64,000 nucleotides of DNA. Origin: Nitrososphaerales archaeon (GTDB taxonomy: Archaea > Thermoproteota > Nitrososphaeria > Nitrososphaerales > UBA213). This document shows positions 29,578-41,827 of this stretch, piece after piece. The DNA is taken from contig CBDAOC010000019.1 in the NCBI GenBank assembly GCA_965197925.1, positions 480,001 to 544,000 on the forward strand. The letters are read 5' to 3'. Each line of letters opens with the position of its first letter. Position 1 is the stretch's first letter. Position numbers and translations under genes: made by a program. The notes under the pieces are model-generated. The model did no database searches. It had not been told where the DNA came from and was given only the letters and a program-made list of their open reading frames with translations.

Positions 29578-29685
29578 AAAAAAATTTTAATTAATCAGTA
29601 TATTTAGTTATCCGTCTGATGTAGAGGACAATTGCAAGATACTAAAAATTCCATAATAAAAATTCGTGCGTCGTTTCAAAATAGG

Positions 29686-29800
29686 CACCGGCACCATCGC
29701 TTCCCGACTGCTCACGCAAGTCAGTATCACGATAGCGACGGCAGGTTTGACTTCTGGGATCGGACGAGACCAGGTCGGACCCTGCCGCTATGGCCGGCTG
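29686..29800 (-). rRNA. rrf: 5S rRNA (stand-alone)
   Basis: Reverse complement CCGGCCATAGCGGCAGGG...CCGATCCCAGAAGTCAAACCTGCCG...GGGAAGCGATGGTGCCGG matches the 5S pattern; ends approximate. Confidence 0.92.
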
Positions 29801-30001
29801 AATCAATTTCAGCATAGGGCTAAATTAATCTTTGCTACACAAAATTTGAAGCAAAATTTAAAGAGATGATTTGCGTCGTCTATGAGCTCAAATGGTTATT
29901 GCTTTACTCCATTGGTTAAAGGTAATTTTACGTAAGAAAAGAAGCATAATATCCATTTTCTAGATAGAGATATATGATATCAGTGGTATTGTATAAATAT
30001 T

Positions 30002-34051: not shown

Positions 34052-34096
34052 CTTGTTTCTTGTTGTTTATGATGCGCCGAGGTGCCCAGACATGGA

Positions 34097-34227
34097 GCCG
34101 GGGTTTTGGTATTAGAAGATATGCCAGAATGGAATCTCCTAGCATGGGAGGGAGCAGGCCTGCTAAATTTTGTGCAGAAAGTCTGTGGCCCGTATGGGCC
34201 TCGTGGGTTCGAATCCCACTCCCGGCG
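34097..34227 (+). tRNA. tRNA-Ser(GCT) with canonical 37/38 intron (34166-34179) and probable second intron (about 34104-34134)
   Basis: Acceptor GCCGGGG/TCCCGGC with G73; anticodon stem CAGGC/GTCTG; long variable arm GGCCC-GTAT-GGGCC; T arm GTGGG-TTCGAAT-CCCAC; BHB central helix CTGC/GCAG. Confidence 0.88.
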
Positions 34228-34456
34228 CCTATTATGATCGAGGTTGTCAATACTGTAGAACTAGTTAGTAAATCAAACTTATTAAAAAATTCACATGATT
34301 TTAAGGCATATCTTATAAGATCGAAGCTTAGATTATACTCTAATTTGTGAATTGTGTACCGCTAACAAGACAAACATTGTTAATGAGATCATCAGTTCCG
34401 TAGTTTCAAATAAAATATATTCTGAACTTATAATTTCTTACTATAAATTGTATTAT

Positions 34457-35333
34457 CAACTCATCTCAAAACCCTACAATACATCAAAAATGATGCAAGA
34501 TTAACAAATGCCAGGTAGTTTTCTGCCGTTCTTTCATACCTGATTCTTGTTCTGTGAAATCCATTCTTGAGCCATGCAAGGAATCTCTCAACTACAAATC
34601 TTGTCTTGTTGTAATGTTTGCAATCATTATTTTGCAAGATGAACTTGGAATTTATTTTGTATGGGATGCAACATGCAATATTTCTATTCCACAACCACAA
34701 ATACATTCTGATGTATTTTGCATCATTTTGTCTGCATAAACTGGTTCTATCTGTTGTATTGAATCATCATCAAGATAGTCTGAAATTGATCCTGTAACAT
34801 CCATGCATTTTGTACTGTCATGTTCATTTGCTGGACTCAACAGTATGGATATTGGAAATCCGTTACCCTCTACTGCGGCATGTATTTTTGTACCTGTTAT
34901 TCTCTTGAATCCATTATATCCAGTTACATTGCCCCTTTTTTATCAGGAATGGATGAAGAGTCAACTGATATTTGTAGATTAATTTTGCCAGATTTATGTG
35001 CTGAGTGAATAGTACGTGATAGAATCTTTTTCCAGATTCCTTTTTGTTGCCATTTGTTTAACCTTCTGTTTGCAGTAGAATCATCACCATATCTTTTTGG
35101 CATATCGTCCCATCGGCATCCAGTAGTTAGAACATGGATTATTCCGTTAATGATTTTTCTATCATAATCCCTAGGCCTGCCAGTTTTTGCATGTGGTGGT
35201 ATGTGTGATTCCATCATACTCCACTGTTTGTCTGATAATTCTTGGAATTTCATAAAATAATTTTAGATGTCGCTATTCATGGATCTAAATGGTCGCTAAA
35301 AATTGTCTAAATGGTTAGTTTTGAGATGAGTTG
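34457..35333 (-). mobile_element. IS5-family element, copy 2 (defective)
   Basis: Same TIRs and near-identical sequence to 12720-13590. Confidence 0.93.
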
Positions 35334-35723
35334 ATTACCTTGAATCTTCTGTCGAAAGTTGTTCTGTTTGACAATCTATCCAAACCATGTGATTTCATAA
35401 CTCTCCTGTTGTATTGCATGTCTATCGAAAAGTATTCATGTAAAGCATTATTGCTAGGTATTCTTTGCCATACTCTAACGATGAAGCATCTCGCCATTAC
35501 TGTAGAAGAATAGTAGGGATTACCTTTCTTCATAAGAGGTTTTGCCCAAGGAATCAATCCGATTAAACGTTATATGCCAGTCAGTATGAATTTAGATCTT
35601 AATCCTGCTAGAAATTCCTCTGGATATTCATATCAGAGAATCTCCGGGAGGGAGATCCTTAGCATAGTATCTCAACTAGATTTTGCAATGTGGTAAAATG
35701 GATTGGAATTATGCCCAAGGCTC
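35334..35723 (-). mobile_element. remnant of the 22868-type IS, abutting IS5 copy 2
   Basis: RCFIVRVW.RIPSNNALHEYF peptide; TIR AATTATGCCCAAGGCTC ending at 35723. Confidence 0.8.
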
Positions 35724-36362: not shown

Positions 36363-37363
36363 TGCTGTCTCAAATAATAAACCAGAAGTTCGTGAATATT
36401 TGATAGATTGAGATTTTGATCAATTATTATCATTAAGATACATGCCTGATAGTAACTGGAATGTGGTACAATGAAGCATAGGTTAGAAAGGGAGAGATAC
36501 TTCTTGATATGGATTTTATAGATTCATGGCCTGGCGAATTAGCAAGAATGAATGAAGGTAAGGCAGGTAAGTCATTTGTGTATCTAGAATCATTCCTAAT
36601 GATGTCTTTCTGTTGTGCACGCTTACCTGCTGCTATAAAACCATTAGAAGTATTCACAAGGATATTAATCAAACATGTTGACGGTTTGGATGCACCCTAC
36701 CATGCAAACATAGTATAGATGGTAGCGAAAATGGATGTTAAGATTGACACGCAGATCAAGAATGATGATGTTGTTATTGTAATAGCTGCAGATTCCTCTG
36801 GCATAAAGGTAGCAAACGGGGGAGAATGGATAAGGAAGAAGGGTATGTAAGGGGATTCATCAATATGCCTCTAGCTGTGGGTAAGGAAAGAAAAGAGATA
36901 GTTGCAACGGGGGTAACTAAGGAGCATGTACATGGCGGCAAGAAGATCATACCTATGATAAAAGGAGTGTTGGAGAAAGATAATGTGAACAAGGTGATAG
37001 CAGATGGACCTTATGATTCTAGAAGGAACTTCAGGTTTCTATCAAATAGCAACATTGAATCAGTGAAAGGTGAAAAAGAACACATGTATAAAAGCAAGGA
37101 GGTCTACACCAAGGAAGCTATCAGGAATAGACCAGAAGGAGGATCTTGATGCATGGAAGAAGAATCATGAATATGAACACAGAGGGGTTGCAGAATCTGT
37201 ATTCTCTGCATTCAAGCGTATCTTTCGGGAACATGCAAAGGCAGTCAAATGGAAAAATATGGTAAAGGAACTAATTCTAAAAGCATCCATATACAAGGTG
37301 TCCGGTGTAATGAATCCAAAAAGGTTTGGATAACTGCTATAATATAGTAATTTTGATACAGCA
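36363..37363 (+). mobile_element. degraded IS5-family element (IS903/ISH1-like)
   Basis: TIR TGCTGTCTCAAA / TTTGATACAGCA; 8-bp TSD TAATGATA; motifs YNEA*VRKGE, ADSSGIK, ADGPYD, AESVFSAFKR; many stops and frameshifts. Confidence 0.88.
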
Positions 37364-37425: not shown

Positions 37426-38574
37426 ATGCGATCAAAGTACGATGGATATAAAGCGAAACTCGTACTTGAAGATGGAACAGTGTTCAAAGGAATAGGCTTT
37501 GGCTTTCCAAGCAAGATAGTAGGTGAGATTGTCTTCAATACCGGTATGGTAGGTTATACAGAAACTCTTACGGACCCCTCATATAGGGGTCAAACATTGT
37601 GCTTAACATATCCTTTAATTGGGAATTATGGGGTTCCTAGCTACAGTATAAAGGACGATCTAGGCATGCCGAAATACTTTGAGGCAGAACAAATACAACC
37701 GAAAGGACTTGTAATACATGAATTATCAGCCTTAGCTAGTCATTGGGCCTTAGAACGGACTTTGGATCAGTGGTTATATGACGAGAGGGTACCTGGTATA
37801 TATGGATTAGATACGAGGGAATTGACGAAACGGATCAGGGTAAAGGGGGTGATGATGAGTGCTATGGAGGTGTCCAGTAGTAATATTAGTGATGAATCGT
37901 TGCTCAACTCACTTAAAGAAAGTGAAAGATATGACGATATAAACTTCGTACAAGAAGTATCAACAAAATCTTCCCAAACTTATGGAGAAGGTGACCAATG
38001 TGTGGTGTTGATTGATAATGGAACGAAGTACAGTATAATTCGCCAATTACTTCGAATAGGATACAAAGTTGTCCGATTGCCCTATACAGCGAATATAGAA
38101 CAAGTACTGACATACAACCCTAAAGGACTAGTGTTAAGTAACGGCCCAGGAGACCCAAAATATTGCTATGAAACAATAAAACTTTCAAGGGATTTACTTA
38201 AGCGCGAAATTCCGACTCTTGGTATTTGCTTAGGGAATCAGATACTTGCGCTAGCATCAGGAGCAGATACCTACAAATTGAAATATGGACATCGTGGACA
38301 AAATAAACCCTGTGTAGATATGCGCAATGGAGGTTCATACGTAACAAGTCAGAATCACGGGTACTGTATAGATCCTGATACATTAAAAGGAACAGGGTTC
38401 GAGCTATGGTTCAAGAACGCTGATGATAATACCGTTGAAGGAATAATTCATCAAGAGAAAAGCTTCATTGCCGTTCAATTTCATCCTGAAGCTTCCCCAG
38501 GTCCCTATGATTGCATGTTCATCTTTAATATGTTAGATAAAATGATAAGAGGTGAGAAAATTGACAAAGCATGA
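37426..38574 (+). CDS. carA: carbamoyl-phosphate synthase small subunit
   Basis: FNTGMVGY.E.LTDPSY, SNGPGDP, GICLGNQ, SQNHGY, QFHPE. Confidence 0.97.
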   Translation: MRSKYDGYKAKLVLEDGTVFKGIGFGFPSKIVGEIVFNTGMVGYTETLTDPSYRGQTLCLTYPLIGNYGVPSYSIKDDLGMPKYFEAEQIQPKGLVIHELSALASHWALERTLDQWLYDERVPGIYGLDTRELTKRIRVKGVMMSAMEVSSSNISDESLLNSLKESERYDDINFVQEVSTKSSQTYGEGDQCVVLIDNGTKYSIIRQLLRIGYKVVRLPYTANIEQVLTYNPKGLVLSNGPGDPKYCYETIKLSRDLLKREIPTLGICLGNQILALASGADTYKLKYGHRGQNKPCVDMRNGGSYVTSQNHGYCIDPDTLKGTGFELWFKNADDNTVEGIIHQEKSFIAVQFHPEASPGPYDCMFIFNMLDKMIRGEKIDKA

Positions 38575-41500
38575 ATGGATAAAGAAAGTACTTGTTTTGG
38601 GTAGTGGCGCAATAAAGATCGGAGAGGCAGGCGAAAGTCTGTAATCAGACCGTCAATTCGACTACTCCGGTAGCCAATGCCTAAAGGCGCTTAAGGAAGA
38701 AGGTGTGGAGAGCATTCTGATCAATCCTAATATAGCCACTATACAGACTGATACAAGATTAGCCGACAAGGTTTACCTTCTTCCTATAAATCCCGTATTC
38801 GTTGAAAAGGTAATACAGCAAGAAAAACCAGATGCTATAATGCTAAGCTTTGGGGGGCAAACTGCACTTAACTGTGGGATTGAATTGACCAAAGAGGGAA
38901 TCCTTGAGAAGTATGATGTTAAGGTTTTGGGAACACCTATAGAAGGAATAGAACTTACAGAAAATAGAAAATTCTTCAAGGAAACTATGCTTAATAATGA
39001 TATTCCCGTTCTCCGTAGTGAAGCGGTCAACAGCATACAAGAAGCCATCAAGGTGGTAAATGGTCTAGGTTACCCTGTAATGATAAGAGTTGCATACACT
39101 CTAGGTGGAAAGGGGGGTGGTGTTGCCTATAACGAGTATGAACTTCATGAAATAGTTCAGCGAGGGTTGGCATCAAGTATTGTTCATCAAGTGTTGATAG
39201 AAGAATATGTCGGGGATTGGAAGCAGATAGAATATGAAGTGAAACGTGATCATCAGGGAAATAGCGTTATAGTCTGTAATATGGAAAACATACTATGTAT
39301 GAAGGTTCATACAGGAGATAATATTGTCGTAGCGCCTTCACAAACCTTGAACAATGATGAATACCATATCCTTAGATCTGCAGCACTTAGAGCAGCGAAG
39401 TCATGTAAGATAATTGGTGAATGCAATGTACAATTCGCATTATCACCAACTTCAGAGCAGTACTATGTAATAGAGATTAATGCTCGTCTGTCTAGATCAT
39501 CTGCTTTAGCGTCTAAAGCAACAGGATATCCACTTGCGTATATGTCGGCCAAGATACAACTTGGCTATACATTACCAGAACTGCTGAATCAGATCACGAA
39601 GGTCACTACCGCCTGCTTTGAACCCTCATTAGATTATTTGGTAGTAAAATTCCCGCGATGGGATTTTAAGAAGTTCGAGTTGGTTAATAAAAAAATCAAC
39701 ACACAAATGAAATCAGTAGGAGAGGTGATGGCGATCGGAAGAAGCTTTGAAGAGGCTATTCATAAGGCAGTTAGAATGTTAGATATAGGACATGATAGTT
39801 TATCGCTAAACAGCATTGCAGATTTGCAGGTCGAGGAACTTGAAGAGAAATTATTTAATCCAGACGATGAAATAATATTCACAGTAGTAGAAGCTTTAAG
39901 GAAGGGCCTTACGATAGAAAGGATAAGTAAAGTTTCGTCAATTGATCCTTGGTTTATTGCAAAACTTTCTAAAATAACAGAAATGGAAAAAAAGATGATT
40001 GAATCAGAAATTAACCCTGAACTGATCTATGAGGCTAAACGGTTGGGTTTTTCTGACAAGCGGATCGGAGAATGTATTGGCATGGATGAACCCAAAGTAA
40101 GGCAGTTTAGGAAAGAGGCTAACATTATACCCGTCGTGAAGCAGATCGATACATTGGCTGCAGAGTGGCCGGCAAAGACAAATTATCTATACCTAACTTA
40201 TGGCGGAGATACTGATGATCTTGTTCTAGAGAGAAATCACGATAGCAGAATGATCGTTCTTGGAGCTGGCCCTTATAGGATTGGTAGCAGTGTGGAGTTC
40301 GACTGGGGTACAGTTAACATGGTATGGGGTTTGAAGGACAATGGGGTGAATGAAGTATCTGTGATTAATTGCAACCCTGAAACTGTATCTACAGATTATG
40401 ATATATGTGACAGACTATACTTTGAGGAACTTACACTGGAACGTGTATTGGATATTTACGAAAAAGAAAAAGCTGATGGAGTAATCACATGTGTAGGAGG
40501 TCAGGCGGCTAACAATTTAATTCCAAAACTGGCCACCAATAAAGTAAAAATTATTGGTACTAGTAGTGAAGATGTAGATACGGCCGAAGATAGATCTAAA
40601 TTCAGTAAGTTACTTGATCAGTTGAATATCAACCAGCCATCTTGGCAAAAATTTGCAAACTTTGATGAAGCGAAGGAATTTGCGCAAGATGTTCAATATC
40701 CAATTTTAGTAAGACCATCTTATGTACTAAGTGGGGCAGCAATGAAGGTAGTATGGGATGAGAAGCAACTTAATCATTATCTTACTGAAGCATCTAATAT
40801 CAGTCCTGAATATCCTGTGGTAATAAGCAAGTTCATATCGGACGCTTTGGAAGTTGAAGTTGATGCTGTTTCAGATGGCAATCAAGTAGTAATTGGTTCA
40901 ATGATTGAACATATTGAACCCGCCGGTATTCATTCTGGCGACGCCATGATGGTTATTCCCCCTTGGCGTTTAACAAGGAAGATAATGGAAACAATATTAG
41001 ATTATTCAGAAAGAATAGCACAAGCATTAAAGATAAAAGGTCCTTTTAATTTACAATACTTAGTAAAAAATGATGAAGTATATGTTATTGAATGTAATGT
41101 TAGGGCATCTCGCTCAATGCCCTTTGTATCAAAGTTCGTAGGTTTGAACTTGATTTTGCTTTCAGCAAAGGTGATGGTTGGTAAAACTCTTCCCAAGGAA
41201 GCAGATTTGGCATGGTTGCATACTAAAGGGTTTGGGATCAAGGTTCCGCAATTCTCATTCATGCAGCTAGAAGGTGCCGACATCGTGCTCGGTGTAGAGA
41301 TGCAGTCTACCGGAGAGGTTGCATGTTTTGGCAACACTTTCTACGATGCACTTTCAAAAGCATTGATCGCATCTGGCTATTCTTTGCCAACAACAGGTGC
41401 GGCATTAATCACAGTTGGGGGCTCAGTAATGAAGGACAGGATACTCCCAATGGTTTCCATCCTTAAATCTATGGGATTCAACATATTTGCAACTGAACAC

Positions 41501-41827
41501 ACGGCCAAATTTCTAATAGAAAAGGGATTCAGAGACACAAAAATTGTATACAAGATCAGGGAACCAGATAGGAGCCCAAATATAGTTAAGCTACTTTACA
41601 ACAGAGAAATAGATTTCATAATAAACATCCCAAACACATCTACTGTTGAAAAATATGTAGGAATGATCTATGATGAATATCAAATAAGAAGAAAGGCTGT
41701 TGAGATGGGATTACCTGTTCTTACAACGTTCGAATCCGCAAATTCTTTTATAAAAACGCTTGAATGGCTTCGCAGCAACGAATCTAGTATAAACGTTCTG
41801 AAAAATTATATGCATTCTCAGACTTAG
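38561..41827 (+). CDS. carB: carbamoyl-phosphate synthase large subunit; join(38561..38635,38657..41827), 1081 aa after splicing
   Basis: TTG start after GAGGTGA SD; KKVLVLGSGAIKIGEAGE|FDYSGSQ; NPNIATIQTD, HTGD, EINARLSRSSALASKATGYP; second ATP-grasp and MGS domain intact. Confidence 0.95.
38636..38656 (+). other. putative bulge-helix-bulge mRNA intron in carB
   Basis: AGTCTGTAATCAGACCGTCAA, containing an in-frame TAA; GGCG/CGTC central helix, AAA and AAT bulges, GTCTG/CAGAC intron stem. Confidence 0.85.

Follow-up and report, generated by a model that had tools for sequence, protein, structure and literature searches.

A short bulge-helix-bulge intron in carB of Nitrososphaerales, very probably removed by tRNA-splicing enzymes

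Archaeal tRNA introns are cut after the second base of the bulge. Non-spliceosomal splicing of mRNA is known from HAC1/XBP1, in which the endonuclease Ire1 acts together with a tRNA ligase and the reaction is regulated. As described in passages of PMC2724299, archaeal tRNA introns form bulge-helix-bulge (BHB) or bulge-helix-loop motifs with a 4-bp helix and 3-nt bulges, and heteromeric endonucleases can cleave relaxed motifs even when no tRNA body is present. The literature that we searched yielded only two archaeal mRNA substrates, cbf5 and HVO_1309. Passages of PMC7714728 present cbf5 as the single case that preceded HVO_1309, those of PMC10485636 speak of at least two genes and probably more, and the relevant part of PMC12397907 cites cbf5 papers only; further genes with predicted introns are noted in PMC2738675, with reference to a paper on a rudivirus and a book chapter on Sulfolobus. 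Intron function is called unknown in one review, and more cases probably remain according to another (passages of PMC7714728 and PMC10485636). The cbf5 intron of Sulfolobales and Desulfurococcales, as portrayed in parts of PMC2738675, is short, lies in coding sequence, forms a relaxed BHB at its junctions, splits the codon of a catalytic Asp, and occurs in hosts with a two-subunit EndA, among which it was repeatedly lost. HVO_1309 of Haloferax volcanii, according to passages of PMC7714728 and PMC10485636, is an mRNA substrate of the tRNA splicing endonuclease, there a homodimeric enzyme, and carries its BHB in the 5' UTR.

The carB insert described here resembles each of these systems in part. 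With the cbf5 intron it shares the short length, the location in coding sequence, the relaxed BHB at the junctions, the invariant catalytic-site codon, the host with a two-subunit EndA, and repeated loss; it differs in belonging to a metabolic rather than an RNA-modifying enzyme and to mesophilic ammonia oxidizers plus two other lineages, and its cbf5-like splicing is proposed from sequence data. The carB intron would work like the cbf5 intron and would be far more widespread; the cbf5 gene of the genome studied here is itself an open frame. Like HVO_1309, carB mRNA would be a substrate of the tRNA splicing endonuclease, whereas the carB intron interrupts the frame, which would make splicing obligatory. 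The 4-bp helix and 3-nt bulges are those of archaeal tRNA introns, but they lie in an mRNA, where splicing would compete with ribosomes. Frame-restoring removal by an endonuclease and a ligase also parallels HAC1/XBP1, although no Ire1-type sensor was identified for carB. An earlier note on this DNA knew of no description of a carB intron; a full-text literature search, with most subscription journals and supplements outside it, likewise returned none for carB or aIF5A.

The carAB locus and its insert

The window, that is, the whole 64,000-nt stretch of a Nitrososphaerales genome analyzed here, encodes carA and carB on the plus strand. carA, the gene for the CPS small subunit, occupies 37426..38574 (TIGR01368, E 2e-128), and its stop overlaps carB exon 1 (38561..38635), which begins with a TTG behind a Shine-Dalgarno-like GAGGTGA (38549..38555, recognized by sequence only). 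From TTG 38561, the carB frame reads GEAGE-SL*SDRQ-FDYSG: the 25 codons of exon 1 are followed by a 21-nt insert (38636..38656) with an in-frame TAA at 38642-44 and then by exon 2 (38657..41827; 1056 codons and the stop), giving a spliced product of 1081 aa. In a profile search, exon 1 matched positions 2-24 and exon 2 positions 25-1051 of TIGR01369 with zero gap or overlap. The insert thus splits carB between profile positions 24 and 25, which abut after its removal, and exact removal restores the conserved reading frame, as in cbf5-type BHB mRNA introns. The earlier note had reported this 21-nt insert with an in-frame stop in a conserved CarB motif, and we confirmed on the sequence all of its coordinates, from the Shine-Dalgarno element and TTG 38561 to the helices, bulges, stem, TAA and outer arms.

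In the BHB fold, the central helix pairs GGCG (38630..38633; sequence and comparative evidence) with CGTC inside the intron (38651..38654) and stands between the 5' bulge AAA (38634..38636) and the 3' bulge AAT (38655..38657), the latter opening into an internal loop as in a relaxed BHB. The predicted cuts fall between 38635 and 38636 and between 38656 and 38657. A 5-bp stem (38637-41/38646-50) with the TAA in its loop closes the intron, and the arms of an outer exon-exon helix lie at 38618..38624 and 38665..38671 (fold and comparative evidence). The 71-nt fold has an energy of −18.9 kcal/mol (z −2.42; 4 of 200 shuffles reach that energy) and the 111-nt fold a z of only −1.56; in the unconstrained minimum-energy fold just two central pairs out of four are formed, and the full BHB lies 0.4 kcal higher. 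The single-sequence fold is modest, and the strong evidence for the BHB is comparative. A longer outer helix in the 111-nt fold was absent from the consensus of 135 sequences and was rejected.

The stretch with the insert was identical, with 0 differences, in contigs of all four runs (3 studies; one possibly the source), so the insert is not an assembly error. With the insert also present in 224 genomes, an assembly or sequencing artefact is practically out of the question. No second intact carB accompanies it: the genome has a single copy.

Annotation has largely passed over the insert, as the earlier note had anticipated from the ORF track, which places the carB start at 38705. Among the 120 nearest database CarB proteins, 74 have a wrong-frame N-terminus, 6 are truncated and 40 are full length; for 80 of the 120 top matches, the gene-caller products are 1037-1043 aa or have wrong N-termini. 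Such proteins are what would be expected if carB were a pseudogene or if a truncated CarB were made from an internal start. We consider this extremely unlikely: this carB is the only one in the genome, and protein-level conservation extends over both exons in every locus read. Translation from 38705 would, moreover, leave out the tunnel loop. The Glu before the intron, the last codon of exon 1, aligns (via an intronless relative) to human CPS1 Glu440, within the loop 430-443 that shapes the carbamate tunnel of CPS1 (a passage of PMC4655335). CarB of the type found in this genome scored 1096 bits against human CPS1 and 881 bits against 1073-aa bacterial chains.

Several broken transposase-like ORFs (judged by eye) lie just 5' of carA, at window 34461-35557 and 36826-37333. 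Farther upstream are a 5S rRNA gene (29683-29801, minus strand) and a tRNA-like gene (about 34075-34230, plus strand). The tRNA-like gene, whose introns appear to be long or multiple, was seen by eye only and escaped both ARAGORN and Rfam.

Conservation and distribution of the insert

Among 130 distinct insert-plus-flank sequences (one window duplicate and one short-flank locus were left out), insert lengths ranged from 17 to 38 nt and fell into all three frame classes (63/37/30), with 48 of the 130 measuring 21 nt. The frame is shifted by 67 of the 130 inserts, and each of the 63 in-frame inserts contains a stop. Counted over 99 distinct introns, an in-frame stop was found in 44/44 in-frame and 42/55 out-of-frame introns; three 21-nt introns without a stop in the loop have one at the last codon. 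Translational recoding, whether the ribosome reads through the stop, shifts frame or bypasses the hairpin, fits poorly with lengths of 17-38 nt spread over all frames, even though 21 nt is a frequent length and a stop within a hairpin resembles the bypassing in T4 gene 60. In a bypass element the take-off and landing codons match, but here the last intron codon does not match the Glu codon. Furthermore, an inserted peptide occurred in 0 of the 120 nearest database CarB proteins, and intronless copies of the gene exist. On these grounds we regard recoding as very unlikely. A group I or II self-splicing intron was also rejected, as its catalytic core takes some hundred bases, against inserts of 17-38 nt without an Rfam match at the intron. 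A sigma-70 and terminator scan, with models unsuited to archaea, stayed at chance level.

The pairing of the proposed BHB is conserved. All 130 sequences form the three central pairs on the side of the 5' bulge as well as the first three pairs of the intron stem, with T-A/C-G swaps. All four central pairs were formed in 114, the first central pair being G-A in the other 16. The earlier note had described the outer helix as imperfect next to the 3' bulge, and the pair adjoining that bulge was indeed formed in only 93 of 130. Given these two features, the carB element is a relaxed BHB, relaxed on its 3' side. The 5' bulge reads AAA or AGA and the 3' bulge AAT, AGT or ATT; where it is ATT (16 of 130), only the canonical cut keeps the Glu, by our own reasoning. 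In an alignment of 27 sequences, 93% of cells were paired, compared with 20-50% in slid controls, and 30 double-sided changes were counted, compared with 7.1 in shuffles, a number that 0 of 500 shuffles reached; these sequences are related, not independent, so the figures express support rather than probability. At synonymous exon positions, the outer helix was kept in 129 of 130 intron-bearing genes, as opposed to 10 of 23 and 14 of 23 intronless genes (a third synonymous position was discounted because the search pattern fixes it). Exon-duplex energy relative to synonymous shuffles differed weakly (mean z −1.29 vs −0.49).

With a flanking-codon pattern allowing a gap of 8-38 nt, 224 of 401 Nitrososphaerales genomes proved to have an insert at this position; same-position inserts with compensatory changes were what the earlier note had proposed to look for. 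The insert was found in 8/8 genomes of group f1, 71/112 of f12, 98/112 of f15, 40/97 of f9 and 2/4 of f13, and in the same 401-genome scan the pattern had no match in f6, f8, f11, f14, f18 or f19. With a gap of 0-30 nt, the flanking motif was recovered in 311 of the 401 genomes. Intronless genomes are present in f15 and f12. A scan of named genomes gave at least 115 matching loci, 113 of them carB and two chance matches (L096, L146). Names among the matches listed were Nitrosopumilus, Nitrosarchaeum, Nitrosotenuis, Nitrosotalea, Nitrosopelagicus, Cenarchaeum, Nitrososphaera, Nitrosocosmicus and Nitrosomirales, and cultured carriers include Nitrosotenuis chungbukensis MY2, Nitrosopumilus salarius BD31 and Nitrosopumilus sp. 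b1. Two single loci stand apart: L095, titled Heimdallarchaeota, is a 2.5-kb contig with a Nitrosopumilus-like carB and intron and is likely a binning error, and L181 (G404) has an in-frame TAG 32 codons past the carB intron, which may be an error, a pseudogene or recoding.

Outside the order, four mostly Woesearchaeota-type records carry an insert of 17-18 nt at the same site; two of them belong to one GTDB order, though titled Woesearchaeota and Methanosarcinales. In the Woesearchaeota-type order, the insert was found in the centre genomes only, among 20/121 and 26/151 genomes with the motif (the second tally including G542). Among 256 Thermoproteota genomes outside Nitrososphaerales there were two true carB inserts; a third match (L302) was dropped as a chance pattern match. 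In the order of these two, three genomes with the insert were found among the 15 of 26 having the motif; in all three the protein reads IGQAAE and then FDYSG, and the central helix is compensated, GCGG/CCGC. Viral contigs gave 0 matches to the carB intron pattern, and no look-alike of the intron was found elsewhere in the studied genome when up to 7 of 28 nt were allowed to mismatch. A second BHB-like insert, 29-31 nt long, precedes the carB intron by about 20 nt in three of the four Woesearchaeota-type genes (L115, L144, L159; also L179, L180, L182). Its removal by the same rule gives G-A-L-K-I, and 3 of 4 central pairs are formed (read by eye); these three carB genes are candidates for a two-intron archaeal mRNA.

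The earlier note had also suggested a genome-wide search for BHB motifs at broken frames. Our scan for frame-mending BHB motifs (introns of 16-45 nt, at least 60 codons downstream) reduced 1738 filtered candidates to 11 near-optimal folds, with carB ranked first and aIF5A second; no other site combined a full central helix with an energy at most 0.5 kcal above the minimum. The aIF5A insert (22 nt, G000:C18:283523-283544, minus strand; L242) splits the Lys codon of the GKHG motif, the hypusine site. It was present in 9/9 f1 and four f8 genomes (including L278 and L339-L349) with lengths of 17-32 nt; all 4 central pairs were formed in 13/13, and every unspliced frame stops within 14 codons. The aIF5A pattern matched 94 of 151 genomes, 82 of them without the insert. 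Judged by these features, the aIF5A insert is a putative BHB intron, the second of this genome. Separately, a BHB-like hairpin lies just before a guaB-like start (by eye) at G000:C19:302923-302955, minus strand (L243), probably in a 5' leader, like HVO_1309.

Intronless contigs and the splicing machinery

A junction pattern run over a metagenome collection matched 16 contigs: three with a near relative, nine distant intronless CarB types at 65-72%, and four that were unassignable (L184, L187, L188, L194). The first three have intron-bearing Nitrosocosmicus genomes as references. L191 matches G406 at 99.36% over 2032 nt, with the 32-nt intron as the sole gap; L195 matches G407 at 98.4% over 1203 nt, with a sole gap of 25 nt; and L198 matches G408/G410 at 91% over 2032 nt, with a sole gap of 26 nt. 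Gap placement allows a 2-nt left shift in L191 and L195 and is unambiguous in L198 against its two nearest genomes. In L198 the joint follows the second nucleotide of either bulge, which is also where the inserts with an ATT bulge place it. In the CarB tree, each of the three is sister to a different intron-bearing genome. By projection from lengths and positions, L191 begins where the three-gene operon starts and ends 95 nt downstream of the carB stop; L188, which matches its best reference at 75%, covers roughly carA to carB, and L198 continues through the convergent gene. Among runs recorded as RNA, none contained the locus studied here, and the DNA contigs of the four runs contained no splice joint there.

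L191, L195 and L198 are probably spliced transcripts; we infer their RNA origin, which the records do not state. With the record type unstated, they might instead be DNA of strains that had lost the intron, in which case they would give no direct sign of splicing and the intron reading could still hold. Exact genomic loss does occur, as the intronless genomes of f15 and f12 attest. However, three separate and very recent losses would be needed in a clade where genus g23, which lies inside it, keeps the intron in 23/23 genomes. The three contigs also retain the outer helix, which truly intronless genomes have lost, and the ends of L191 match those of the operon. Loss at the DNA level is therefore an unlikely account of them.

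Profile searches found two EndA subunits and RtcB in the genome, consistent with the machinery that the earlier note had named; the catalytic and the structural EndA subunit were assigned by eye from characteristic motifs, in this genome only. Several of its tRNAs have introns. A separate cluster of 28 intronless CCA-ending tRNA genes at G000:C16:24379-97254 is unlike the host tRNAs and possibly represents a virus or another element in the bin.

Based on the conservation, the covariation, the frame-breaking lengths, the near-identical intronless contigs and the presence of both enzymes, the carB intron is very probably spliced by EndA and RtcB, at the cut sites that the earlier note had predicted for a BHB intron. 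The insert would accordingly be a BHB intron in carAB mRNA. In the folded transcript, two bulges would flank the 4-bp central helix, with the intron hairpin closing one end and the exon-exon helix the other. The heteromeric tRNA splicing endonuclease would cut both bulges past their second base, and ligation of the exons by RtcB would give back the Gly-Glu-Phe-Asp of the carbamate-tunnel loop. Unspliced carB mRNA would yield a short peptide only. As the genome has a single carB, CPS expression would depend on splicing.

Intron loss, start codons and a possible regulatory role

The carB intron is often lost. The CarB tree shows 17 intron label changes, at least 12 of them forced and three from the transcript-like contigs; the tree comes from a quick search with SH-aLRT support only and omits four loci with a short exon 2 (L046, L181, L186, L188), and, being unrooted, it fits one ancient origin or repeated gain alike. 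Start codons also vary with the intron. In a tally of 191 loci at a fixed homologous position, which is approximate, ATG occupied the carB start in 28 of 153 intron-bearing and 16 of 38 intronless loci. Many of the carB genes have CTG, TTG, TTT, TCG or ATT behind a strong Shine-Dalgarno sequence, and some (in f9) have no recognizable start. Five sampled sister comparisons set ATG, GTG or TTG on the intronless side against CTG, TCG or ATA on the intron side; exceptions with both intron and ATG are Nitrosocosmicus and one g64 genome.

In a kinetic model, a weak start codon would delay the loading of ribosomes, and such slow initiation may give EndA time to act before they unwind the hairpin, either as an accommodation to the intron or as a control point. 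A regulatory role of the intron in CPS expression is possible, although we hold it with some doubt. We lean slightly toward the view that the intron is spliced but neutral, a reading that competes with regulation and not with splicing: it would have been inserted into a pre-existing exon hairpin and kept since only exact deletion is viable. The forced label changes (at least 12) and the low occupancy of some groups (only 11/46 genomes of genus g30 and 0/11 of f8) agree with neutrality, and so does the location of the cbf5, carB and aIF5A introns, all within invariant codons, the pattern to be expected if introns become trapped nowhere else. Against neutrality stand the retention of the intron over most of a large order, the use of the same site in three distant lineages, and the five sister comparisons with the stronger start codon on the intronless side. 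The earlier note's proposal thus divides: the dependence of CPS expression on splicing is upheld by the single carB, whereas regulation by this route is less probable, the intron having been lost many times, though the losses in the sampled sister groups pair with a stronger start.

A broader reading, which we offer tentatively, is that tRNA-type splicing may be a translational gate on essential archaeal genes. The carB intron and its near-cognate start would then form one module tying carbamoyl-phosphate synthesis to EndA/RtcB activity, and short BHB introns that interrupt invariant codons, as in cbf5, aIF5A and carB (there once or twice), would make up an overlooked and recurring class, with repeated origins at identical sites in different archaeal phyla.

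The carB intron, in over half of the sampled Nitrososphaerales, and the putative aIF5A intron enlarge a very small class of archaeal mRNA introns, and they correct the annotation of the 80 of 120 nearest CarB proteins whose N-terminus is wrong or missing. The function of archaeal mRNA introns becomes directly testable where near relatives differ in having the intron. The hosts are environmentally important ammonia-oxidizing archaea, and CPS is a core metabolic enzyme; if the gate reading is true, the step by which ammonia oxidizers bring ammonia into arginine and pyrimidine synthesis would be linked to EndA/RtcB.
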